From the IMG/VR virus record IMGVR_UViG_3300029286_001647: a DNA stretch of 43,509 nucleotides; one strand, given 5' to 3'. Under the pieces are notes generated by a model. That model was not told where the DNA came from. It saw only the letters and a program-made list of their open reading frames with translations, and ran no database searches. Positions 2,797-35,837 of the stretch are shown in pieces (positions within the stretch are counted from its first letter, which is position 1; each line of letters opens with the position of its first letter). The stretch comes from a virus. The position numbers and the translations under genes were made by a program.

Positions 2797-3276
2797 TTAT
2801 TCCCCCCTCTTTAAAGCATTTTTGTAATCTTCTTCTGAAATCTCATATTCGGTACAAACTACGCACCATATATTTTTATAGCAATCGAATTCCCCTATCG
2901 CAACGAAATGCTCTTTCTTAATCTTAATAGGAATAGTAATCATCTTACTTAGCCATGCCACAGTGGTAGGTCTATCGAGTCCAGAGTACAAATACTCTGA
3001 TATCAACATCTCATTGCCATTCTCCTCCAAAAAACAATGGCATACCCCGCCATTTAGAGCCTGCCCGTCTGCAAGACAATCTATATGATTAGCCCTAAAC
3101 AACGTCGATAATGGAGTATTAGTGCCAGGCGTTAAAAGGGTATCCATGTACGGAGAAAGCAGAACATCTTTGTGATAGTCACTTACTCTGACTGCTTTAT
3201 AAAACGTCCGCGGTTGACCATCAGTCCAGGCATCGAGATACTCTTGAGTTTTTTTAGCATCTACGATTGTGCACAT
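2797..3276 (-). CDS. MC-family paralog 1 (159 aa, starts MCTIVD)
   Basis: shares N-term 'MCT(I/V)..(K/R)T..(F/Y)L..W.DG..KTF(Y/W)K.V', 'SPY', 'G..H..L' and 'IPI.IKK..F..IG.F' with 4 other ORFs. Confidence 0.6.
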   Translation of the reverse strand: MCTIVDAKKTQEYLDAWTDGQPRTFYKAVRVSDYHKDVLLSPYMDTLLTPGTNTPLSTLFRANHIDCLADGQALNGGVCHCFLEENGNEMLISEYLYSGLDRPTTVAWLSKMITIPIKIKKEHFVAIGEFDCYKNIWCVVCTEYEISEEDYKNALKRGE

Positions 3277-3743
3277 AGGTATTTTCCCTTTACTGCGTCT
3301 TCATAGACTTGTGGGTCGATTGTATATTTCAGAGAGACAACACAAGCTGTTTTCATGTCATCTCCGAAAATGCCTATTCCTCTGAAAGCATCTTTCTTAA
3401 TCTGAATTGGGATCATAGATAAGTCTTTTCTCTCACTCATAGTACGACAATAAACTTTATGAAACTCTTTTGCCTCTGATTCCAATAATAGGCAATGGAA
3501 GAATCCGCAACGAACATCTTCCATTGCGAAAACATCTTCCATCCCTTTAAATCTACCTACAGCATTATCCCCTTTATCGATAGGTATTTCATAATAAGGA
3601 GACATCATTTTAACTGGAACAGGATAGCTTCTTGACACAACGCAAGGTCCAGCGACAACCAGTTTCCAGAAGGTTTTGACTTCTCCGTCTTTCCACTCAG
3701 CGAGAAAACTTTCTGTTCTCGCTCTGTCTACGATTGTACACAT
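3261..3743 (-). CDS. MC-family paralog 2 (160 aa)
   Basis: paralogous to 2797-3276; 16-nt start/stop overlap 'ATGTGCACAATCGTAG' conserved with the next junction. Confidence 0.6.
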   Translation of the reverse strand: MCTIVDRARTESFLAEWKDGEVKTFWKLVVAGPCVVSRSYPVPVKMMSPYYEIPIDKGDNAVGRFKGMEDVFAMEDVRCGFFHCLLLESEAKEFHKVYCRTMSERKDLSMIPIQIKKDAFRGIGIFGDDMKTACVVSLKYTIDPQVYEDAVKGKYLCAQS

Positions 3744-4207
3744 TTGTATTCACCCTCCAAAGCTTTTTGATAGACTTCTGGATCTACGGAGTAGCAAGTA
3801 GATATAACACAATCAACGCCTTCATGATCCGGGAATTCACCTATGCCCAAGAAATCTTTTTTCTTTATCTTGATTGGTATGATAGATATGCTTTTATCCA
3901 TGCTAGGCAAATAGCTACGAAGTTTTTGCGCACTAGCATTATCTAGCAAAGCGTGATAAACACCACCATATATATCAGTTTTGTCGCGCCAGTCTTGGAA
4001 ACATCTAATATATCTAAAACTTTCCCCTTTAGCTATATATGCACTTTGGTATAAAGAAACTAATCCGCTTGGTGAAACCTTTCCAGTATCTTGATTTAAC
4101 GTCTGATATAGACTGAAACAAACCGCTTTGTAGAAGGTCTTTTCTTCTTCGTCTCCCCATTCAGCCAGAAACTTTTCAGTTTTTTCTTTATTGAATACGG
4201 TACACAT
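3728..4207 (-). CDS. MC-family paralog 3 (159 aa)
   Basis: paralogous; C-terminus 'EGEYKCVQS' resembles 'KGKYLCAQS' of paralog 2. Confidence 0.6.
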   Translation of the reverse strand: MCTVFNKEKTEKFLAEWGDEEEKTFYKAVCFSLYQTLNQDTGKVSPSGLVSLYQSAYIAKGESFRYIRCFQDWRDKTDIYGGVYHALLDNASAQKLRSYLPSMDKSISIIPIKIKKKDFLGIGEFPDHEGVDCVISTCYSVDPEVYQKALEGEYKCVQS

Positions 4208-6242: not shown

Positions 6243-6606
6243 GTTCTGCTATTTGTTTCTTAAGATCAGCTATGATACGATTTGCCCTTGCAAGCTCCTC
6301 ATTAGTCTTAGCAAGGCTCTGCATCTCTCCCATAATCTTCTCTTGGAAGTCTTTGCTTCTGGCTTCTTCTGAGAAGTTAAACAAGTGCATCATATTTGCT
6401 TCTCTAAAGATATACTCTGTAAGGACAAACAAATCATCATCATCTCTAAGACCAGTACCGCATTCACTGATTGCAGTTATAATGCTTAGATTCATCGGCT
6501 TCTCTTCTTTTAAAGCGCGAGAATAAGCTTTTGCAGCCGCCTTCATCGGTGTATCTGCGATAATTGCTGTCTCAAAATCACCACTTATAATATAATACTT
6601 TGGCAT
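6202..6606 (-). CDS. hypothetical protein with C-terminal coiled coil (134 aa)
   Basis: ORF track. Confidence 0.5.
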   Translation of the reverse strand: MPKYYIISGDFETAIIADTPMKAAAKAYSRALKEEKPMNLSIITAISECGTGLRDDDDLFVLTEYIFREANMMHLFNFSEEARSKDFQEKIMGEMQSLAKTNEELARANRIIADLKKQIAELEKNKEENDDVSG

Positions 6607-7118
6607 TACTCCTCCTTAACAGACTTTTTTAGCTCATTCAGACGCGCTATAATCTTATCTTGAACCCCTTCGAATGGCACTTTATTGTCAAACGTTGGTA
6701 TTGTATATTTCGTGACAACGGCAGAATTAGGTTCTCCTCCCTTATAATCAAACCTGCCCAAAGCGACGAAATCCTTTTTATCTACCTCGACTTCTACAAT
6801 ATAGCACTCGTATGAACAATGTATTAATTGGGCGCAATTGTTTTGAAGTAGAGCAATAGCCCCGCCTTCTATGATCGAGTCTACGCTTAAAAACAGATGA
6901 GCGCCCCTTGTCACTTCTTTAAGCTCAATCTCTAGATGAGAAAGAGTGTTATCTATTCTACTAGAATAGTTTTCACCGAGATTAATCTCCAATCCCATAT
7001 ATGGAGAAAGATATGCCTCAGGATAGCATCTAACAACCTTAAGAAATGTCTTTTTCTCGCCGTCTTTCCAATCTGCAAGAAACTTGCCAGTTGCCTCTAT
7101 ATCCGGTATTAAGCACAT
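6606..7118 (-). CDS. MC-family paralog 4 (170 aa, MCLIPDIEATGKFLADWKDGEKKTF)
   Basis: same motif set as the 2797-4207 trio. Confidence 0.6.
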   Translation of the reverse strand: MCLIPDIEATGKFLADWKDGEKKTFLKVVRCYPEAYLSPYMGLEINLGENYSSRIDNTLSHLEIELKEVTRGAHLFLSVDSIIEGGAIALLQNNCAQLIHCSYECYIVEVEVDKKDFVALGRFDYKGGEPNSAVVTKYTIPTFDNKVPFEGVQDKIIARLNELKKSVKEE

Positions 7119-7629
7119 TTTTGTTCTCCTTTACTGAGGATTTCATTCGTCTCGTCTACTATTGGTATTACAGATAGACCGGCTTCAAGAGAGGGAATGT
7201 TATATTCCATTACTACGGCACAAGTGACTTCCCCATTAGCAGTTTCAAACCTGCCTACCGCAAATATGTCTTTCTTCTCGACTTCTACAGGGATAATATA
7301 CATATTGTCCATCCCATTAAACGTGTCCTTATCTATATGATCTACTTTATTGTCTCTAGCGTGAATCAAAAGATCTTTCTGTAAAGAATCTTTTTCCAAA
7401 AACAAATGGCATCCATACATTACATATTGACCACGAATCTCGTAATCTTCTAGGTAATTGATAGACCTGGCTGACCTATTAATGCCTTTATGGACCCACA
7501 ACCTATAAATGGTGTTATGAATGTGCCATCCTTTTGTCTATTAACAAGCTTCCAGAAGGTTTTGACTTCCCCATCTTTCCACTCTGCGATGAACTTTTTA
7601 GTCGCTTCTAGATCAAGTGTTAAGCACAT
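7109..7629 (-). pseudogene. MC-family paralog 5, frameshifted
   Basis: N-terminus 'MCLTLDLEATKKFIAEWKDGEVKTFWKLV' (ATG ~7629) runs 59 codons to a stop at ~7452; the family 'GCHLFLEKD...IPVEVEKKDIFAVGRF' continues in another frame (7109-7501). Confidence 0.45.
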
Positions 7630-23158: not shown

Positions 23159-23419
23159 TTACCACTTTGACGGTTTATGAAACCAGTTTGAAACCTTATC
23201 ATCACTTTTACCACATGCAATTGCTACTATAGCAGCTATTAGCATGATAAAAGTCCAAATAGGACCGAATCCGATAACAGCTATGACAGTAGCGATAGCA
23301 TAGGCATTAGACCACATTCCTCCGCCATAATTCTTAACTCCACATCTATGAATAAAATAGCCAGGAACACCCATAAGAACCCATAAGATATATGTTAGGA
23401 TGGCAGGATCCATATTCAT
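23159..23419 (-). CDS. small 2-TM protein, KPxKW family (…NWFHKPSKW)
   Basis: one of a tandem array sharing the C-terminal W-x2-3-(K/E)P(A/S)(K/S)W. Confidence 0.5.
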   Translation of the reverse strand: MNMDPAILTYILWVLMGVPGYFIHRCGVKNYGGGMWSNAYAIATVIAVIGFGPIWTFIMLIAAIVAIACGKSDDKVSNWFHKPSKW

Positions 23420-23426
23420 TCCTCCT

Positions 23427-23681
23427 TCACCATTTTGACGGTTTATTCAGCCACTTGTCAAGGCTATATCCCTTTTCGTCTAGGGCGATAAGGATAACAG
23501 CGATAGAGCCAAGTATAGAACCTACAGGTCCGCATATAGAGCAACAGACAATAAAGAAAATACTGTCTTTAACAAGCCATCGCTCTTTCTGTCTTTTCGT
23601 TATGCTCCTGATGATGATATAGGCAGGAATGCCAGCAACAATCCATCCCAGAATAAACATTAAAGTCCACAAAGCATCCAT
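23427..23681 (-). CDS. small 2-TM protein, KPxKW family (…KWLNKPSKW)
   Basis: as above. Confidence 0.5.
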   Translation of the reverse strand: MDALWTLMFILGWIVAGIPAYIIIRSITKRQKERWLVKDSIFFIVCCSICGPVGSILGSIAVILIALDEKGYSLDKWLNKPSKW

Positions 23682-23693
23682 TTCGTTTCTCCT

Positions 23694-23969
23694 TTACCAT
23701 TTAGCGGGTTTGTCTAACTTGCCTAGCCAATAAACGCCATATATGATTAAGAACACAAATAGACCTATTGGCAACAGAGATAGAAAAATAACCACTATCC
23801 TATCTCCAATTGTATATCTCCAAAATCTCTCTTGGCACAATATCTGCCTAGAAAATAGGACACGGAAATTGATACCACATACAACATATACAAAAATAAT
23901 TCTGCTTCTGATGATGACATATCTCTTTCCTTTCCAATTACCAACTAGCAGGTTCGTCCCAATCACCAC
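23694..23969 (-). CDS. small membrane protein, KPxKW family (…GKLDKPAKW)
   Basis: as above; start uncertain. Confidence 0.45.
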   Translation of the reverse strand: MVIGTNLLVGNWKGKRYVIIRSRIIFVYVVCGINFRVLFSRQILCQERFWRYTIGDRIVVIFLSLLPIGLFVFLIIYGVYWLGKLDKPAKW

Positions 23970-24153
23970 AAAATCTAATAAGCAACACTATAAATATAGC
24001 GCATAAACCGCATGGACCCAGCAGAGAGATAAACCCACAGATTGCTCTATCTCCTTTAGTCCATTCATCAAAATCTTTCAAAGCGGTCCACTTGCCTATA
24101 CGATAGGTGATTACTACTGACAGCAAATACAATGCAATCCATACTGCTATCAT
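23938..24153 (-). CDS. small 2-TM protein, KPxKW family (…DWDEPASW)
   Basis: start set at internal ATG (MIAVWIALYLL) giving an ATGA overlap with the upstream gene. Confidence 0.45.
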   Translation of the reverse strand: MIAVWIALYLLSVVITYRIGKWTALKDFDEWTKGDRAICGFISLLGPCGLCAIFIVLLIRFCGDWDEPASW

Positions 24154-24380
24154 TGTTCTCTCTCCTTCTTTACGATCTTTTTGTCTGGTGCGCCAAAAAT
24201 GAACATGATAACAAAAGCTACAAGAAACGCTATAGGGACGGCGGCTATCACCATACAAAATCTTCTGTCCTGATATGTTATACTGCCACCTTCAGATAGC
24301 TTAGTAGCTTTTACCATCAGAAAGTAGTTGATGAAGTACAAAGCGATATAACCGGCTACAAGCAACAATGTTTCAAGCAT
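24150..24380 (-). CDS. small 2-TM protein (76 aa) lacking the KPxKW terminus
   Basis: hydrophobic; same array. Confidence 0.45.
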   Translation of the reverse strand: MLETLLLVAGYIALYFINYFLMVKATKLSEGGSITYQDRRFCMVIAAVPIAFLVAFVIMFIFGAPDKKIVKKEREQ

Positions 24381-24404
24381 CTTTCCCTCCGTTTTCCGCG
24401 AAAA

Positions 24405-24668
24405 TTACCATTTCGCAGGTTTATCAGACCACAAGTATCCCCACCACTTACCAATTTTTCTTCCGGGATGTGCTTCCCACCAGTCGCAAAACAGAGCGCC
24501 AAGTAAAACACATACAAAAATCAAACCTATCAAAGACATTATAAGGCAAAGTGTCCTGTCAGAAGAAGACCATTTACCATGCTGATCTCTTTTGACGTAC
24601 CATCTCATAAACAGATAAGATGATACATAACAAGCCAGGTACGCAAGTATCCATAGGAAAGCTGTCAT
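24405..24668 (-). CDS. small 2-TM protein, KPxKW family (…LWSDKPAKW)
   Basis: as above. Confidence 0.5.
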   Translation of the reverse strand: MTAFLWILAYLACYVSSYLFMRWYVKRDQHGKWSSSDRTLCLIMSLIGLIFVCVLLGALFCDWWEAHPGRKIGKWWGYLWSDKPAKW

Positions 24669-25712: not shown

Positions 25713-27023
25713 TTATCCCACAATCTTTCCCTTTTCAACATTTACTTTTTCTCCCTCCGCCAAGCCAAGAACTTTACTATCTAAAATGGCAAAAGGATAA
25801 CTCCCATCGGCATCTTTCCAACGCTGTACCAATACCGCTCCGATATGCACTATCCATCCAACTTTTTCTGAGCATACAGAGCATACAGATGAATTAGAAA
25901 TCTCTACTATGGAACATTGACCAGTGACAGACGAAGAGCATAATTCTCCCATGTTCTTCAATACGGATTGATCTCCAGTTGATGATTGACTGGATTGATA
26001 TCCAGTTGAGGATTGACTGGATTGATCTCCAGTTGATGATTGACTGGATCGATGTCCAGTTGAGGATTGACTGGATCGATATCCAGTTGAGGATTGACTG
26101 GATTGATCTCCAGTTGATGATTGACTGGATCGATGTCCAGTTGAGGATTGACTGGATCGCTCTCCAGTCGATGATTGACTGGATTGATATCCAGTTGATG
26201 ATTGACTGGATTGATATCCAGTTGAGGATTGACTGGATTGATCTCCAGTTGATGATTGACTGGATCGCTCTCCATTCGATGATTGACTGGATTGATATCC
26301 AGTTGATGATTGACTGGATCGATATCCAGTTGAGGATTGACTGGATTGATGTCCAGTTGAGGATTGACTGGATTGATCTCCATTCGATGATTGACTGGAT
26401 TGATATCCAGTTGATGATTGACTGGATCGATATCCAGTTGAGGATTGACTGGATTGATCTCCAGTTGATGATTGACTGGATCGATGTCCAGTTGAGGATT
26501 GACTGGATCGCTCTCCAGTCGATGATTGACTGGATCGATCTCCAGTTGTATACCCATCGTTATTCTTCTTAGAGTCTTCGACAATCCATGCAATTCTTCC
26601 AGATTGTGTAAAATACATAGCAGACGACAATGACCCATTATGAACAACTTCAACAGACTTAGCTTTCACTTTTCCTCCATCGATAGAGACTACATCAGAT
26701 GGAGTAGCAGCAAGCACCAAGAACGGCAAAGTTGCATCTACATCCTTGCCTTCCCCGAGAAACATCCCCCATGGCCAAGCGTGAATCCCATTTCCGCATT
26801 TTGGTTTAGGATCCCAATCTGGACATTCTACAATACCAGACTCAGGCCAAGTAATTACAGGAGCAGTAGTCCCATCTTCCTTATCCATACCGCCTGTAGT
26901 ACGATTTCTCTCGATTTGCTTAACGAGCAAAACCTTTGTTCCATCGTGCGTCCACTGATGGATTGGGATATCAAACACTTTTTCCACATCTTTTACTGGT
27001 TCTTTAATGTCGTTTTCAGCCAT
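25713..27023 (-). CDS. Ser-rich repeat protein (436 aa): N-terminal domain, ~22 copies of the 9-aa repeat 'SSQSSTG(D/Y/H/E)(Q/R)', C-terminal domain
   Basis: encoded by the 27-bp tandem DNA repeat. Confidence 0.65.
   Translation of the reverse strand: MAENDIKEPVKDVEKVFDIPIHQWTHDGTKVLLVKQIERNRTTGGMDKEDGTTAPVITWPESGIVECPDWDPKPKCGNGIHAWPWGMFLGEGKDVDATLPFLVLAATPSDVVSIDGGKVKAKSVEVVHNGSLSSAMYFTQSGRIAWIVEDSKKNNDGYTTGDRSSQSSTGERSSQSSTGHRSSQSSTGDQSSQSSTGYRSSQSSTGYQSSQSSNGDQSSQSSTGHQSSQSSTGYRSSQSSTGYQSSQSSNGERSSQSSTGDQSSQSSTGYQSSQSSTGYQSSQSSTGERSSQSSTGHRSSQSSTGDQSSQSSTGYRSSQSSTGHRSSQSSTGDQSSQSSTGYQSSQSSTGDQSVLKNMGELCSSSVTGQCSIVEISNSSVCSVCSEKVGWIVHIGAVLVQRWKDADGSYPFAILDSKVLGLAEGEKVNVEKGKIVG
25964..26550. 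repeat. tandem 27-bp repeat, ~21-22 copies (plus-strand unit 'ccagttgatgattgactggattgatat')
   Basis: visible directly; patterned variants at 3-4 positions per unit; all six frames open. Confidence 0.9.
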
Positions 27024-30995: not shown

Positions 30996-31976
30996 TCATT
31001 CACCTTTCCGTTTTTCGCGGAAATCGCAAACCCAACATTTATGTGCATAAGAGAATCGTATATTCCCATTCACTCCATCTTCTGTACGATAATCACCGGC
31101 AGATGCGTGATACTTGCACTCTTGCCATAAATGACAAGATTCACTTTTGCAGATTGGAACGCAGCCAGGAACAAATCCATTTGTCACTGCCTTTTGATTC
31201 AAAGAGATATAAGCGTCAACAGGTTCGTAATAAGGCTCTCCGCGGGAGACAAATGAATCTACTCTCGAAAATATGTCTTCTACAATCTGAACTTTGTTAT
31301 TCGATTTATGCCATTCACTCTCCCCAAAATTAGATGGAGGAACAGTATCCAACAGGATAGCACAATGAGTTTTGGCTTCCCTCATCATCTTCTTGTCATT
31401 GACAACTACGAGATTTGCCTGATTTCTCTCCAAAGACTTAAATCCAATCTCAAGAAGCTCATCAAAAGTTCTATTGATTTCGAACTTGAAAGCGACAATA
31501 AAGAAATTAGGGTCTTTATTCCATTCACGGAAATGAGTGATGATCTTTGGATTGAGAACAATCTTTTGCCTCATATACTCAATCAAAGCTTCTGGATCAT
31601 CAGATTTCAGCTTGATACCTTCACCTTCGTCTTTTTTGAAACCGAAGTCAGCAACTGCCATAGCGTGAACAATGGCATCAGCTTTCGGAACAAGAAGCTC
31701 TAGCATTTCAAAAGCGTCTTGTGCAGAATAGACTGTATAGGTCTTAACCTCTCCTCTATAGTAGTTTCTATTCGCAATAGATTCTACAATTGTCCTGCCA
31801 TATTCTATATCCTTAGACCCTGTCGTTTGTACGAAATCAACATCCCATCCCTTTTCGGAGAAGTATGCGGCTGCAATTGCTCCAAGAGCGCCAGACGATA
31901 CGTTTGTGATCAAACGAAAATCGTCTACCTTCTCTTTTGTCCCGCCTGAAGTCACGATTACTTTTTTGTTAGGCAT
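30996..31976 (-). CDS. coaB: phosphopantothenate-cysteine ligase (CoaB domain) with Cys-rich C-terminal extension
   Basis: 'KKVIVTSGGTKEKVDDFRLITNVSSGALGAIAA' matches CoaB/DFP; start set at ATG 31976 with a GGAGAG ribosome-binding site. Confidence 0.8.
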   Translation of the reverse strand: MPNKKVIVTSGGTKEKVDDFRLITNVSSGALGAIAAAYFSEKGWDVDFVQTTGSKDIEYGRTIVESIANRNYYRGEVKTYTVYSAQDAFEMLELLVPKADAIVHAMAVADFGFKKDEGEGIKLKSDDPEALIEYMRQKIVLNPKIITHFREWNKDPNFFIVAFKFEINRTFDELLEIGFKSLERNQANLVVVNDKKMMREAKTHCAILLDTVPPSNFGESEWHKSNNKVQIVEDIFSRVDSFVSRGEPYYEPVDAYISLNQKAVTNGFVPGCVPICKSESCHLWQECKYHASAGDYRTEDGVNGNIRFSYAHKCWVCDFREKRKGE

Positions 31977-31977
31977 T

Positions 31978-32235
31978 TTATCTCTCCGATTCTGGAATCT
32001 TAGGTCTTTCAACCACTTTGCAACCTAGCGCCGTAGCAATTGCAGAAACTATTTCTGAACATTTCTCCAGATGTATTTCTTTGTCGAATTGAGTCTCAAG
32101 GAAATACGGTGTAATCGCATTGATTACATTTCCGTTTAGGTATAGATTAACATGGACGAGTTGCATACGTCCACCTACAACAAGCTTTCTATATTCTTTT
32201 TCGACTATCAAAACATTCTCATCGCTCATAGTCAT
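31978..32235 (-). CDS. hypothetical protein (85 aa)
   Basis: ORF track. Confidence 0.4.
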   Translation of the reverse strand: MTMSDENVLIVEKEYRKLVVGGRMQLVHVNLYLNGNVINAITPYFLETQFDKEIHLEKCSEIVSAIATALGCKVVERPKIPESER

Positions 32236-32794
32236 CTCCTTGCCATTTTAAGGCATTGTTAAGGCGTATAGTAGGATCTAAAAGGTTTTCTGGCTGAGGT
32301 TGATCCAATTCCCATCCTCCCGCCGAGATCTTACCATGTCTGTACAAATGCAAATGCAACATTGATCGTGGTCTACCTTTGTCTTTCTTCAACACTCTCT
32401 TAACATATCCAACCAGATCGCCAGCTAAAACAGGTTCGCCTATTTTAATTGTACGAGATACGTCAATCTCTCCATAAGCGACAACTCCGCTTTCGCCAGC
32501 TATAAGAACAGCTTCCGTATCTTCCCACCAATCGCAACCGGCTTTCTTTCCAGTCCAAGCTTCGATAAGAACAGGAATCCCATCCTCAACTGCGTAAACA
32601 GGAGTTCCTTCAGGGCAATATAAGTCTACTCCTCCGTGAACATCATGTTTTCTCTTCGCACCAAAAGCGCCACAATGTTCTCCAAAAGGGATTTCTACTT
32701 GTTTAGTGATATCGATCTTACGAAATGATTCAGAATCATCCGTTAAATCAAGCACTTCCATTCTAAGAGGGAATTTCCAAAGCGGCATCTTCAT
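32219..32794 (-). CDS. M23/LytM peptidoglycan endopeptidase
   Basis: 'HGGVDLYCPEGTPVYAVEDG' (HxxxD) and 'MLHLHLY' (HxH). Confidence 0.75.
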   Translation of the reverse strand: MKMPLWKFPLRMEVLDLTDDSESFRKIDITKQVEIPFGEHCGAFGAKRKHDVHGGVDLYCPEGTPVYAVEDGIPVLIEAWTGKKAGCDWWEDTEAVLIAGESGVVAYGEIDVSRTIKIGEPVLAGDLVGYVKRVLKKDKGRPRSMLHLHLYRHGKISAGGWELDQPQPENLLDPTIRLNNALKWQGDDYER

Positions 32795-33362
32795 CCTCCA
32801 ATAACTTATTTACAAACTCAACTACTTTTCTTGGTTCTTCTGCTTTACCCTTACCCACATCTCCACAAGCCAGTCTCCCCACTACTGGCTCTATAAAATG
32901 GATAACAGGTCGATGTATATGATTGAGTATATCGGTAAAAGCGAATAACAAAGTCCTCATATTTTTGACATTGATGGGATGCTCATACATCCTCGTGTTG
33001 CAAGCAGGGCAAATAACAATCCTGCACTTATCTAATGGCAAAGCCATAAAAGTAGTAGAAAGCAAATCATCTGCAATCCCATTGGCAAACTTAGCCATAA
33101 TGTTTACAGTCGCAGGATAAACGAGAAATACATCCGCCCAAGTCGCAAGTTCAATATGTTTGATCGAAGTACGTCTTTCCCACATACTTGTATGTACTTC
33201 TCCTCCAGAGACGCTTTCGATTGTCAATGGAGTAATAAACTTTGTGGCATTCTCTGTCATAATAGTCTTAACTTTATGACCAGTCGCCAGTAAGCCAGAG
33301 ATAACGTCACAAGCCTTATAGGCTGCAATCCCGCCAGTAATACCAAGTAGTATGTTTGCCAT
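32763..33362 (-). CDS. coaC: phosphopantothenoylcysteine decarboxylase (CoaC flavoprotein)
   Basis: 'MANILLGITGGIAAYK', 'FITPLTIESVSG', 'ICPACN', 'LACGDVGKGK' parallel E. coli Dfp N-domain; AGGAG ribosome-binding site. Confidence 0.85.
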   Translation of the reverse strand: MANILLGITGGIAAYKACDVISGLLATGHKVKTIMTENATKFITPLTIESVSGGEVHTSMWERRTSIKHIELATWADVFLVYPATVNIMAKFANGIADDLLSTTFMALPLDKCRIVICPACNTRMYEHPINVKNMRTLLFAFTDILNHIHRPVIHFIEPVVGRLACGDVGKGKAEEPRKVVEFVNKLLEDEDAALEIPS

Positions 33363-33366
33363 GTTC

Positions 33367-34422
33367 TTACTCCTGTGATGGAGCGACTGCCCATCCGATT
33401 TCAGGCTCAACAGATACGCTATCTCTTGAGGAGACTCCAAGTAGCCCAGCATAGAAATCATACTTGTATTCTGTCCCAAGGTATTCCCATATAAACGGGA
33501 CTTTGCTGACAGATGATGGAAGCCTATCTGAAGTCAATCCTCCAAATAAATCTGCTGTAATAACATCAATATAAGGATTTCTTGTGAAAGGATCTCCATC
33601 ATTATATTGATTCTCAAGATACGGGAAGAGATTTACCATCCACCCTTTAATATATGGACCTCCGCTCTGGTTCTCTTTATTATAGGCTCTGCTCCAGAAA
33701 GCAGAATTAGCATTCCCTTTCTTAGCCTCGATAAACTCGTCCAAAATCTCCAGCACGGACTTAGTCCACCACCCAAGACCGTATTGTTCCCATTGAGCGA
33801 CTTTCTCTTTCATCTTCTCCCAATCGCCCAATGTCCCGCAGATATAGATGTTTGGAATACCGCACATTGTACACACTCTATATTCAAAATATGCTTTCAT
33901 TGCATCCATCAATACGATCTCACTTGCTGCTTTCTCTACGTTGCCAGTTGTAGAGAAGTCAGCTACGATAAGGCTGTGAGTTTGTTCACCGATATGTTTC
34001 TTAATTTCGGCGGAAAAAAGAGCAAAGTCTTTCTCCCAATCATTATCAGGACTTCCTTTAACAAGGCTATCGTCGCGTACTCTGATTAAAAGCTTACCTT
34101 CGTGAGAAACAAACTTGCTTCTTAGATCTTCTGCATTCATATTGATATGATTAGCAAGACCCTGAGTTAGAGTAATCCACATAACATCAGGCGTGATCCA
34201 CAGGTTATGATGATGATCGAAAGCATATTCAACAGCAGACATAAGGCAATGAAAAGGAGCAGCATTGATGACTTCTACGTTCTTAGAGCAAGCCTCTGGA
34301 CTCACTCCAGAAAGCTTCTTGAAGAAGCTTCCCAGAGCCATACTGCCCTGAGTAGATACTTTCATCTCTGCAACGTTATTCCCCTGGACTTTAGTTGTTT
34401 CCATCATCCCATTGAATCTCAT
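33367..34422 (-). CDS. hypothetical protein (351 aa)
   Basis: ORF track; no family recognised. Confidence 0.55.
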   Translation of the reverse strand: MRFNGMMETTKVQGNNVAEMKVSTQGSMALGSFFKKLSGVSPEACSKNVEVINAAPFHCLMSAVEYAFDHHHNLWITPDVMWITLTQGLANHINMNAEDLRSKFVSHEGKLLIRVRDDSLVKGSPDNDWEKDFALFSAEIKKHIGEQTHSLIVADFSTTGNVEKAASEIVLMDAMKAYFEYRVCTMCGIPNIYICGTLGDWEKMKEKVAQWEQYGLGWWTKSVLEILDEFIEAKKGNANSAFWSRAYNKENQSGGPYIKGWMVNLFPYLENQYNDGDPFTRNPYIDVITADLFGGLTSDRLPSSVSKVPFIWEYLGTEYKYDFYAGLLGVSSRDSVSVEPEIGWAVAPSQE

Positions 34423-34433
34423 ATCTTATCTCC

Positions 34434-34643
34434 TTAATCTTTTTTTCTCGCAAAAATAGCTACGAGCATCGCTACTATGAAAATCAAAACAAAAGCGATT
34501 ATCACCATAGATACCGCTGAAATAACCATAGACATAAACGCAGCTATAATCGAGGGAAATACTTTAGTAAAGAAAGGGTAATAGATAAATGCCAGAGGCA
34601 TTACTATCGCCAGCAAAAACGCTTTCCTTATTAAGTCAAACAT
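34434..34643 (-). CDS. small 2-TM membrane protein (69 aa)
   Basis: hydrophobic. Confidence 0.4.
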   Translation of the reverse strand: MFDLIRKAFLLAIVMPLAFIYYPFFTKVFPSIIAAFMSMVISAVSMVIIAFVLIFIVAMLVAIFARKKD

Positions 34644-35738
34644 TTACTTTCTCCCAAACCACCTATTATATATGACATCGTAAACACCATTTCCCCTAAG
34701 TTTCAAAAGTGCGATGTCCACTTTTTTGCGCAAATCACTATCATGGATAGCAAACCCGTAGTATTGAAGGTCAAACATCCAATCCAAAGCCATCACTTTG
34801 CCAGACCCATCTCCATTGGCAAAATACATCACATTGGGAGAATCATAGACAACAATTTCGATGTCGCCATTTACAAGCTTCTTATACGCTTCCTCAATGG
34901 TTTTTACAGTCTTAACCTTTGCGCCAATCTTCTTCAATGCACTAACACTTGTAGTGTTCTCAACAGTATACACTTCTTTCCCGTTCAAATCTGACTGGCA
35001 AGTGATAGCGCCATTCAAACGATCAGAAGTAAAGTCTGCTGCTAATCTCGCAATCAAGTTCGCAAAGAAACCATATCCTAACAAGATAAGCATAATGACA
35101 ATAGCTCTGCCTACCTTCTTTTTAGCTACAACATCTCCAAATCCGACAGTCGAGCTTGTCACTACGGAGAAGTAGATAGCCTTTCCCAGTCCGGGAATAT
35201 ACTTCTTATCGAAATGCTCTGACCCTCTTTCTGCCACCCAAATGAGATGGGCAAAGAATATGATAAAGATGGTATAAGCCATCAGTAATTCGACTACTTC
35301 TGGCTTCACAAACGAGTCTACGAAAAACTTAATAAAACGAAACTTTGCAAGAGATTTCCATTGCATAGCTTCTTTCGATTTGCCTTGAGGGATAAGCACT
35401 CTCAATCCCGAATCGAGATAATGCTGAGAAAAGTTCACTTGCTTTTCGCGATCTTCGTCAATTGTGATGCCGGATATGCCGATGTCTGCTTTGCCAGATG
35501 AGACATTCGGAATAATTTCACCGAAATCTACTACCTGATACTTGTAGGAAAGGTTTAATTCTTTTGCAATAGCCTCCCAAAGGTCTATATCAAACCCGGT
35601 GACCTTATCGCCGTCTACATTGACGCAAGGGGCGAATTCAGACAGATTGACGATTAAAGGCTTTTGTGACCCTTGTGTAGAAGGTTCTGCCGCTAGGCAG
35701 AAAGACGAAATGAATAGAATAGATAAGAGCGATTTCAT
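34644..35738 (-). CDS. GluR0-type ligand-gated K+ channel (substrate-binding-protein lobes S1/S2 split by a 2-TM K+ pore)
   Basis: signal peptide 'MKSLLSILFISSFCLAAEP'; S1 'GFDIDLWEAIAKELNL...GISGITIDEDR'; M1; pore 'YFSVVTSSTVGFGDV'; M2; S2 lobe to C-term. Confidence 0.8.
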   Translation of the reverse strand: MKSLLSILFISSFCLAAEPSTQGSQKPLIVNLSEFAPCVNVDGDKVTGFDIDLWEAIAKELNLSYKYQVVDFGEIIPNVSSGKADIGISGITIDEDREKQVNFSQHYLDSGLRVLIPQGKSKEAMQWKSLAKFRFIKFFVDSFVKPEVVELLMAYTIFIIFFAHLIWVAERGSEHFDKKYIPGLGKAIYFSVVTSSTVGFGDVVAKKKVGRAIVIMLILLGYGFFANLIARLAADFTSDRLNGAITCQSDLNGKEVYTVENTTSVSALKKIGAKVKTVKTIEEAYKKLVNGDIEIVVYDSPNVMYFANGDGSGKVMALDWMFDLQYYGFAIHDSDLRKKVDIALLKLRGNGVYDVIYNRWFGRK

Positions 35739-35837
35739 TGCAGTGAACCTTTCTGTATCATCCAGTAGAGAGTAAAGGGACAATCCGTTATCCCTTTACC
35801 CTCTCTGAATGAAACCCTAACAACGAAACGATTGTGC

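Follow-up and report, generated by a model that had tools for sequence, protein, structure and literature searches.

Channels of the GluR0 type are prokaryotic relatives of the ionotropic glutamate receptors (iGluRs) that carry a K+ pore, and the protein with which they are usually compared, Synechocystis GluR0 (Slr1257), was reportedly described by Chen et al. in 1999. Here we analyze a gene for such a channel on a stretch of DNA of 43,509 nucleotides, IMG/VR virus record IMGVR_UViG_3300029286_001647; the whole stretch is called the window below. The gene lies at 34644-35738 and ends a cassette of five genes that also encodes a protein of the PspA/IM30 family. A preliminary description, made from the letters of the window alone, had read it as a GluR0-like channel in a phage.

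Synechocystis GluR0 is a K+ channel of the plasma membrane with both termini outside, and passive K+ influx and volume buffering have been ascribed to it (Zhang et al., 2026, PMC13099474). Proteins of this type with a K+ filter were found to be confined to bacteria, and most prokaryotic proteins with the S1-2TM-S2 layout, in which two transmembrane (TM) segments separate the ligand-binding lobes S1 and S2, have no P-loop (Ger et al., 2010, PMC2950845). K+ channels of viruses, such as Kcv and those known from Myrna and Vibrio phages, consist of the pore alone, measure 82-228 amino acids (aa) and have the conventional orientation, and a survey of virus transport proteins listed GluR-like genes in chloroviruses only (Greiner et al., 2018, PMC6163359). 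One of these, A162L of PBCV-1, has 411 aa and three TM segments and is activated by glycine (PMC6163359); the chlorovirus proteins have been described as weakly similar to other glutamate receptors. A clamshell has also been joined to a viral pore by design: GluATCV is reported to be an engineered fusion of the GluA1 ligand-binding domain to the viral KcvATCV-1 (Schönrock et al., 2019, PMC6385376).

For the other side of the locus, the nearest described systems are the bacterial CesT/Tir-PspA operons, which join a small chaperone-like partner and PspA to DUF350 (YjfL), a lipoprotein and a beta-rich or enzymatic protein; in one class there is also a K+ channel, which senses its ligand inside the cell (Ravi et al., 2024, PMC11237479). 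Genes like pspA have been noted in the Jug phages, which are huge gut phages; that paper mentions no channel.

The gene encodes a GluR0-type channel

The channel gene and its parts are as follows.

34644-35738, minus strand: gene of the GluR0-type channel of 364 aa, reading from ATG at 35738 to the stop TAA at 34644-34646
35691-35738, minus strand: predicted signal peptide, aa 1-16, MKSLLSILFISSFCLA, with likely cleavage before AEP (sequence features, AlphaFold2 helix 2-15)
35385-35660, minus strand: ligand-binding lobe S1, aa 27-118, containing F35, F72, G90, T92 and R97 (alignments with PDB sequences)
35229-35303, minus strand: transmembrane helix M1, aa 146-170 (AlphaFold2, hydropathy)
35133-35201, minus strand: pore helix, aa 180-196, and K+ selectivity filter T197-V-G-F-G-D202 (filter at nucleotides 35133-35150)
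35016-35117, minus strand: transmembrane helix M2 and linker, aa 208-241 (AlphaFold2, hydropathy)
34650-35009, minus strand: ligand-binding lobe S2, aa 244-363, containing T262-T263-S264 and D299 (alignments with PDB sequences)

The ATG is preceded by a Shine-Dalgarno (SD)-like GAAAGG; an alternative in-frame TTG at 35783, which would add 15 aa, was judged the less likely start. In Pfam, the SBP_bac_3 family (E 3.9e-30) is split across residues 34-362 and Ion_trans_2 (E 4.6e-14) lies inside it at residues 157-234. Lig_chan-Glu_bd, the family of the iGluR ligand site, matched residues 44-118 (E 4.6e-10), and Lig_chan matched weakly (0.003). Among PDB sequences, the E. coli glutamine-binding protein (GlnBP) aligned as two pieces, with channel residues 27-118 and 244-363 (E about 1e-36), and the ligand-binding cores of GluR0 from Nostoc (2pyy, 4e-28) and Synechocystis (1ii5, 6e-13) also aligned. 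An insert of 125 residues, which holds two TM helices and the K+-channel signature, breaks the binding protein exactly at the S1/S2 hinge; the pore takes up ~95 of the 364 residues and is embedded in the binding-protein fold.

Structure prediction gave the same division. Hydropathy shows two strong TM segments only, 147-170 and 208-234, besides the signal-type helix at the N-terminus. The AlphaFold2 model, built from 29 homologues, has a mean predicted local distance difference test score (pLDDT) of 87.4 and places S1 at 28-117, followed by a disordered linker, a pre-M1 helix, M1 at 146-170, the pore helix at 180-196, the filter at 197-202, M2 at 208-241 and S2 at 244-361. No TM segment follows S2, the C-terminus being three residues beyond its last helix, and there is no amino-terminal domain. 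In Foldseek searches of the PDB the clamshell matched GlnBP (TM-score 0.87), and chains with the ligand-binding and transmembrane domains (LBD-TMD) of GluA2/3/4, GluN and GluK aligned over ~375-400 columns (E about 1e-20).

The best sequence matches of the gene are to GlnH, the NCBIfam GlnH model aligns with it from residue 1, leader included, and databases label its homologues 'ABC-type amino acid transport substrate-binding protein', so that it could be taken for the GlnH-like binding protein of a transporter, with no channel function. We find this hardly credible. A two-TM insert of 125 residues with a K+ signature stands at the hinge, there are no permease or ATPase genes nearby, and the whole-chain fold resembles iGluR LBD-TMD structures; the Pfam, AlphaFold2 and Foldseek results refute the reading.

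These results, with E values well outside what chance would give, confirm that the gene encodes a relative of the GluR0-type ('Group 1') prokaryotic iGluR K+ channels, and the predicted protein has every property of that family that can be checked in a sequence. The preliminary description had already assigned this architecture, and it holds in each part: all the peptide strings quoted are present in the translation, a signal-type helix and two TM segments are predicted, the 'TVGFGD' segment sits between the two TM helices in both the AlphaFold2 model and the hydropathy profile, and a substrate-binding-protein fold flanks the pore on both sides. The signal-peptide-like leader and the even number of TM segments predict that both lobes are periplasmic, because the N-terminus would be exported by Sec.

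Like Synechocystis GluR0, the protein consists of signal peptide, S1, M1, P-loop, M2 and S2, with neither an amino-terminal domain nor M4, and it shares with it the K+-signature filter, a predicted inverted pore topology and the conserved Arg and Asp that anchor an alpha-amino acid. It differs from Slr1257 in being distant in sequence, its clamshell (E 6e-13 to the Synechocystis ligand-binding domain) being closer to enterobacterial GlnBP (E 1e-36), in having TVGFGD and not TVGYGD as its filter, in its ligand-specificity residues, and in its setting, a huge-phage-like contig and a fixed place as last gene of a PspA cassette, neither of which is on record for a GluR0. With Kcv and the Myrna and Vibrio phage channels it has in common a two-TM pore module and a filter of the (T/S)T(I/V)GFGD type, TVGFGD being the Vibrio-phage consensus quoted by Greiner et al. 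(2018, PMC6163359); unlike the channel described here, those proteins have no ligand-binding domain. PBCV-1 A162L and E3T502 of Cafeteria roenbergensis virus (CroV) are likewise encoded by viruses and have a ligand-binding clamshell flanking a pore module, but they belong to eukaryotic viruses, are of the larger, eukaryote-like 3-TM type and have no link to PspA. GluATCV, in which a binding clamshell is made to gate a minimal K+ pore of viral origin, follows the same modular principle (PMC6385376), but it is synthetic and the protein here natural and evolutionarily conserved.

The channel ends a conserved five-gene PspA cassette

Five genes in the order p251, p237, p150, PspA, channel make up this cassette, which the channel closes. 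The other cassette genes and the elements at its two ends are listed here.

38993-39022, minus strand: promoter-like TTTATA-18-TATTAT with a terminator-like site at 39014-38999 (consensus matches only)
38180-38935, minus strand: partner p251, with a signal/anchor, a Ser/Pro/Gly-rich linker, a conserved GGYGY domain and a C-terminal TM segment
37436-38149, minus strand: partner p237, a beta-rich cytoplasmic protein of an orphan family with 11 database clusters
36594-37421, minus strand: partner p150, a conserved N-terminal part of ~150 aa followed, in the window, by an acidic Gly/Cys-rich tail
35838-36518, minus strand: PspA/IM30-family protein, 226 aa (PspA_IM30 E 1.4e-9, residues 7-221)
34434-34643, minus strand: very hydrophobic open reading frame (ORF) of 69 aa, whose ATG overlaps the channel stop (TAAATG)

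The position of the channel directly downstream of a PspA-like gene had been recognized in the preliminary description, which overlooked the cassette as a whole and its two bacterial-looking occurrences in metagenome-assembled genomes (MAGs). We compared the window proteins with loci fetched through channel homologues and then ran hidden Markov models (HMMs) of the partners on 102 loci. The identical order, with the genes immediately adjacent, was found at L003, L006, L008-L012, L018, L022, L032 and L034, and wherever the cassette occurs PspA immediately precedes the channel. L022 was reached independently, from the p237 family alone, while L032 and L034 were added by the HMMs of four partners. 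Minor variants occur: at L007 the C-terminus of PspA falls at the locus edge, and L009, L014 and L022 have two small ORFs in place of the ~150-aa gene. The cassette is carried by all seven IMG/VR contigs that encode a relative of the channel. Among the ~67 cellular GluR0-type loci recovered from species-representative bacterial genomes it was present in two, both of them MAG contigs of 35-36 kb (L032 and L034), and the ~65 others, complete chromosomes included, were without it. Cassette proteins of different loci share 22-50% identity, and such low identities together with a fixed order indicate that the arrangement is old and maintained.

At its 3' end the cassette stops with the channel. The 69-aa ORF that follows was considered as an auxiliary channel subunit and rejected, as it has no conserved equivalent at the other cassette loci; it probably lies outside the cassette. 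The promoter-like and terminator-like pair just upstream of p251 is a possible start of the cassette transcription unit; in our promoter and terminator scans, terminator-like sites showed at most a mild excess over shuffled sequence. An Rfam scan of the window gave zero matches, with no riboswitch or RNA element near the channel.

The cassette resembles the CesT/Tir-PspA (YjfJ-type) operons in several respects. A ~150-aa partner precedes the PspA homologue, p150 sitting where the CesT/Tir-like partner sits in the published PspA dyads, a K+ channel is part of the operon, and the other members include one protein that is secreted or anchored in the membrane and a cytoplasmic one rich in beta structure. 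A tandem DUF350 protein (YjfL family, ~8 TM segments, E 1e-46 to 1e-54) is encoded directly upstream of the cassette at three loci, L006 (6305-7189), L032 (1847-2722) and L034 (1665-2597), and confined to these; it links the cassette to the published operon classes. In other respects the two differ. The window cassette has no DUF350 gene, polyamine genes were not seen, and the channel would sense the periplasm through its predicted clamshell, whereas the published class senses intracellularly. The cassette is also found mostly on viral contigs.

The partners themselves set the cassette apart as well, having no detectable relationship to YjfI, YjfK, YjfM or YbjN. We considered p251, p237 and p150 as homologues of YjfI, YjfK and YjfM, encoded by the E. 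coli yjfIJKLMC operon; the sizes agree, but hhalign gave E 0.11-0.32 and Pfam nothing, so that yjfIJKLMC is kept solely as an organizational analogy. We also considered p150 as a chaperone like YbjN or CesT; its profile aligned with E. coli YjfI at E 0.32 and with YbjN at E 0.14, neither of which is significant. Searches of PDB sequences with the three proteins gave zero matches, and DUF1190, DUF2491 and DUF4178, which belong to the published operons, were not detected in p251 or p237 at Pfam E values up to 1. Their link to PspA gives these three uncharacterized orphan families a functional context in which they can be tested.

In several of the phage-like loci genes of NAD salvage (NadE, PRPP synthetase, NAPRTase, NAMPT) are found close to the cassette, namely in L018 (2449-5335 and 13947-15116), L011 (5238-6788) and L012 (5272-6855).

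Ligand pocket and pore of the channel

We consider it moderately likely that the protein at the end of the cassette, on a huge-phage-like genome, is a ligand-gated K+ conductance that works with PspA. The anchors by which GlnBP holds its ligand, F13, F50, G68, T70, R75 and D157, correspond to F35, F72, G90, T92, R97 and D299 of the channel; these are the residues that bind the alpha-carboxylate and alpha-amine and sandwich the ligand. The channel was aligned with 29 full-length homologues of 29-43% identity to it; Arg97 and Asp299 never vary among them, and T-V-G-[FY]-G-D hardly does. Of the 13 other cassette loci, 11 agree with the window in having the filter (T-[VI]-G-[FY]-G-D), the pore helix and the conserved E170 and W167 intact. 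Because the pore is kept in this way at only 30-45% identity, it appears to be under selection. Within M2, the segment FFANLIARLAA resembles the iGluR M3 gate motif SYTANLAAF, a resemblance that was read directly.

Three observations on the cassette proteins weigh against this reading. Firstly, the residues that read the glutamine side chain in GlnBP are replaced in the channel (D10 by L32, K115 by V259 and H156 by Y298). As the backbone anchors are kept while the side-chain readers differ, the ligand is very probably an alpha-amino acid. Secondly, p251, p237 and p150 have no Pfam match even at E up to 1. Thirdly, and most seriously, the products of the last cassette gene in L011 (10001-11047) and L012 (10001-10978), both on IMG/VR contigs, have lost the pore helix and filter. 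They are S1-2TM-S2 variants with two hydrophobic segments, in which both lobes are intact, with the equivalents of R97, T92 and D299, and the cassette is retained. It follows that K+ conduction is dispensable to the cassette and that a non-conducting tethered binding protein can serve there.

The pore-less variants also lead to the alternative that the protein is a membrane-tethered periplasmic amino-acid sensor that recruits or regulates the PspA module, conduction being secondary or dispensable. PspA systems generally require a membrane partner, and such a role would agree with the lack of a P-loop in most prokaryotic S1-2TM-S2 proteins (Ger et al., 2010, PMC2950845). However, the filter, pore helix and E170/W167 pair are kept intact in the window and most of the other cassette loci, which speaks for selection on the pore, and Synechocystis GluR0 does conduct K+. 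We regard a mainly sensory or regulatory role as a serious rival but distinctly unlikely, and retain the ligand-gated conductance as the preferred reading.

Phage or bacterial origin of the window

The window, a viral record by its IMG/VR entry, had been taken for phage DNA in the preliminary description. It contains ~70 mostly small ORFs, almost all on one strand and with few family matches, and its cargo includes RtcB, T4 endonuclease V, NADAR, two N6/N4 methyltransferases, HNH, an M23 peptidase, a tail-fibre-like protein and paralogue families. We found no tRNA, rRNA or housekeeping genes in it. SD-like motifs precede 37 of 50 window genes, against 9.7±2.9 expected, and these prokaryotic signals exclude a eukaryotic giant virus as the source. 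In the viral collection the channel has seven relatives, each on an IMG/VR contig; these contigs measure 100, 123, 186, 298, 395, 461 and 548 kb. Their flanks are densely filled with genes on one strand, mostly without a Pfam match, and include a T4-type RNA ligase, LysRS, NAMPT, a TROVE protein, HNH and radical SAM.

A further link to huge phages is given by two adjoining genes.

14965-17241, minus strand: major-vault-protein (MVP)-like gene, 758 aa (MVP_shoulder E 7e-28, Vault_3 E 1e-11)
17252-17464: ORF of 70 aa upstream of the MVP-like gene and conserved with it

In 50,697 deposited phage records the sole matches of the MVP-like gene are LR756501/LR756503 (735 kb) and LR756500 (462 kb), which are uncultured huge phages; identity to LR756500, LR756501 and LR756503 is 43-44% over 95-99% of the length. 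A vault-like protein in phages is unusual in its own right. Wider synteny with LR756500 and LR756501 was looked for and not borne out, the common genes being limited to the MVP-like gene, the small upstream ORF and CoaB. At the DNA level, a megablast search with 13.5 kb of the window against the 50,697 records gave no match; tblastn with PspA and p237 against deposited phages gave none either, IMG/VR held no copy of an exact 38-mer, and further viral scans with p237 and the MVP-like protein added nothing. A look-up with the gene at the left end, for a longer contig that reaches structural genes, returned shorter contigs only.

Several points tell against a phage origin of the window and of the cassette. 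Genes for capsid, portal and terminase were not found in the window with PHROGs or Pfam, nor were virion hallmark genes in the examined ±10-kb flanks of the related loci; the window being a 43.5-kb fragment, their absence is not decisive. The neighbours of the cassette in L032 and L034 look bacterial (an epimerase, a CHAT-TPR protein and an Eco57I-type methylase), and in L005 PspA and the channel stand together with RRF, iPGM, holB and RseP. A neighbour-joining (NJ) tree interleaves cassette-linked and stand-alone bacterial channels on long branches, which ruled out a phage-specific channel clade. A point against the preferred reading in general is that composition changes within the cassette: PspA and the three partner genes have 49-54% GC and a third-position value (GC3) of 54-63%, the channel 41% and 43%. 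The latter resembles the rest of the window (GC3 38±9%); the vWA gene (42231-43112) and the ORF at 43075-43425 are GC-rich like the partners.

The contig might come instead from the chromosome of a bacterium, from a plasmid or from some other large mobile element, and bear an ordinary bacterial GluR0 in a PspA envelope-stress operon. Beyond the missing virion genes and L005, such a reading can draw on the wide occurrence of GluR0-type genes in bacteria, since the GTDB genomes hold 205 relatives, the nearest from Desulfobacterales (39-43% identity), the complete chromosome of Desulfosarcina alkanivorans among them. It can also draw on the cassette with DUF350 on two MAG contigs with bacterial-type neighbours, and on PspA operons with DUF350 and K+ channels being a known bacterial theme. 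What it leaves unexplained is the distribution of the cassette, present with the channel on seven of seven IMG/VR contigs of 100-548 kb and missing from ~65 other cellular loci; in clearly bacterial contexts (L019, L020 and L002) the channel occurs alone. The small same-strand ORFs, phage-typical cargo and paralogue families of the window, its lack of rRNA, tRNA and housekeeping genes, and an MVP-like gene common only to curated huge phages likewise speak against it, and we judge it fairly unlikely. That the window comes from a phage is likely, given its gene content, the IMG/VR relatives and the shared vault-like gene, although without capsid, portal or terminase the earlier assignment is not proven. 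We read the cassette as a variant of a bacterial-type Psp operon that a group of huge phages has acquired and retained.

The channel had further been called undescribed in phages, and virus K+ channels had been called pore-only. For phages, both statements stand within the collections searched: tblastn of the channel against the 50,697 phage records gave matches to the S1 lobe only and no full-length relative, and phage entries among the BFVD viral structures matched either in the pore only (~80-180 columns) or as a binding-protein fold without a pore. Full-text literature searches for GluR0 or iGluR with phage returned no relevant report. For viruses at large the second statement is somewhat too broad, because iGluR-like proteins exist in giant eukaryotic viruses, namely chloroviruses and CroV; the only whole-architecture match in BFVD is CroV E3T502 (514 aa, E 4e-21, 394 columns). 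The channel type is thus already known, and what appears new is its fixed place as the last gene of a PspA cassette carried by huge-phage genomes. With the family known, we rate the interest of the finding as moderate, not high.

A proposed role in infected cells

We infer tetrameric assembly and ligand-gated K+ conduction from homology to Synechocystis GluR0; gating and K+ selectivity are proposed on the same footing, expression timing and physiological role from the gene context. Sec would export the N-terminus, which would leave both halves of the clamshell in the periplasm, while M1 and M2 would span the inner membrane and the pore helix and TVGFGD filter would enter it from the cytoplasmic side. 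By analogy, four subunits would assemble, and closure of the clamshell on an alpha-amino acid would pull M2 open and let K+ flow down its electrochemical gradient. During infection, to judge from the gene context, PspA and its partners may stabilize the inner membrane of the host, and the channel, in response to periplasmic amino acids, may reset host membrane potential, K+ content and turgor. The physiological role suggested in the preliminary description is likewise plausible.

A more specific version of this proposal is that huge phages carry a module that senses and stabilizes at once. The receptor-pore would read amino acids that leak out of the infected cell or of neighbours undergoing damage or lysis, and alter potential or turgor, with PspA repairing the membrane concurrently. 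We put it forward as speculation and think it unlikely in this form. If true, the module would provide ligand-gated electrical control over the length and outcome of the infection cycle, and for the first time a natural ligand-gated ion channel would have a defined part to play in a bacteriophage; the protein would be a natural counterpart of the engineered LBD-Kcv chimeras.

Ion-channel effectors are a known logic in phage exclusion, and the channel might instead be an effector of superinfection exclusion or abortive infection that collapses or clamps the membrane potential in the manner of RexB, possibly in cooperation with the neighbouring vWA, PP2C and kinase genes. This set adjoins the cassette in the window and in L003, and a vWA gene follows the channel in L018. 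Yet the sensing domain is predicted to face the periplasm and to bind an amino acid, not a cytoplasmic infection signal, and the tight link of the channel is to PspA, which protects membranes. In PADLOC, the channel, PspA, p150, p237, p251, PP2C and vWA had no match and the kinase a marginal one (about 1e-4); no defence model matches the cassette proteins, and we dropped the reading of the cassette as a defence system. An exclusion effector is in our view very unlikely.

A ligand-gated conductance working with PspA would have wider consequences. The known ion channels of phages are bare pores, from which a sensor-coupled channel recurring across many very large viral genomes would differ. The locus would offer a tractable case of how huge phages with long cycles manage host potential, K+ and envelope integrity. 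As a bacterial-type protein of 364 aa, the channel is suited to expression for studying how a clamshell gates a K+ pore, and the coupling of clamshell to K+ pore is the ancestral step in glutamate-receptor evolution.

Other genes in the window

Upstream of the cassette, at 39061-43112 on the minus strand, genes for a Ser/Thr kinase, an HNH endonuclease, a PP2C phosphatase and a vWA protein adjoin it and form a vWA-PP2C-kinase triad like that of TerY-P. In L003 the same set comes after the channel, as a vWA gene does in L018; PP2C is near the channel in the bacterial locus L002. In the window the kinase is split into two ORFs, 39061-39780 and 39732-40751, which overlap at 39732-39780, by a single-base deletion relative to an ENA contig. 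That contig, otherwise 99.98% identical, encodes the kinase as one gene of 563 aa, and the deletion is probably an assembly or sequencing indel.

Two families of paralogues were seen. The first (2797-4207 and 6606-7501) has five ORFs of ~130-170 aa, four of which start with MCTIVD, MCTVFN or MCLIPD; the second (23159-24668) has five two-TM ORFs of ~85-105 aa, all with a KP[SA]KW end. The tail-fibre-like gene (25713-27023, minus strand) matched phrog_4433 (E 3e-28) and, more weakly, other tail-fibre PHROGs; here the window and the ENA contig differ by a repeat block of ~281 nucleotides.

Directly downstream of the channel region lies a gene for a DUF4419 protein (33367-34422, E 2e-71). It is part of a minus-strand stretch, 30996-34422, in which a split CoaB (DFP domain, 30996-32012) and CoaC (Flavoprotein, 32763-33479) stand on either side of an M23-peptidase-like gene. 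CoaB adjoins the MVP-like gene in LR756500 too.

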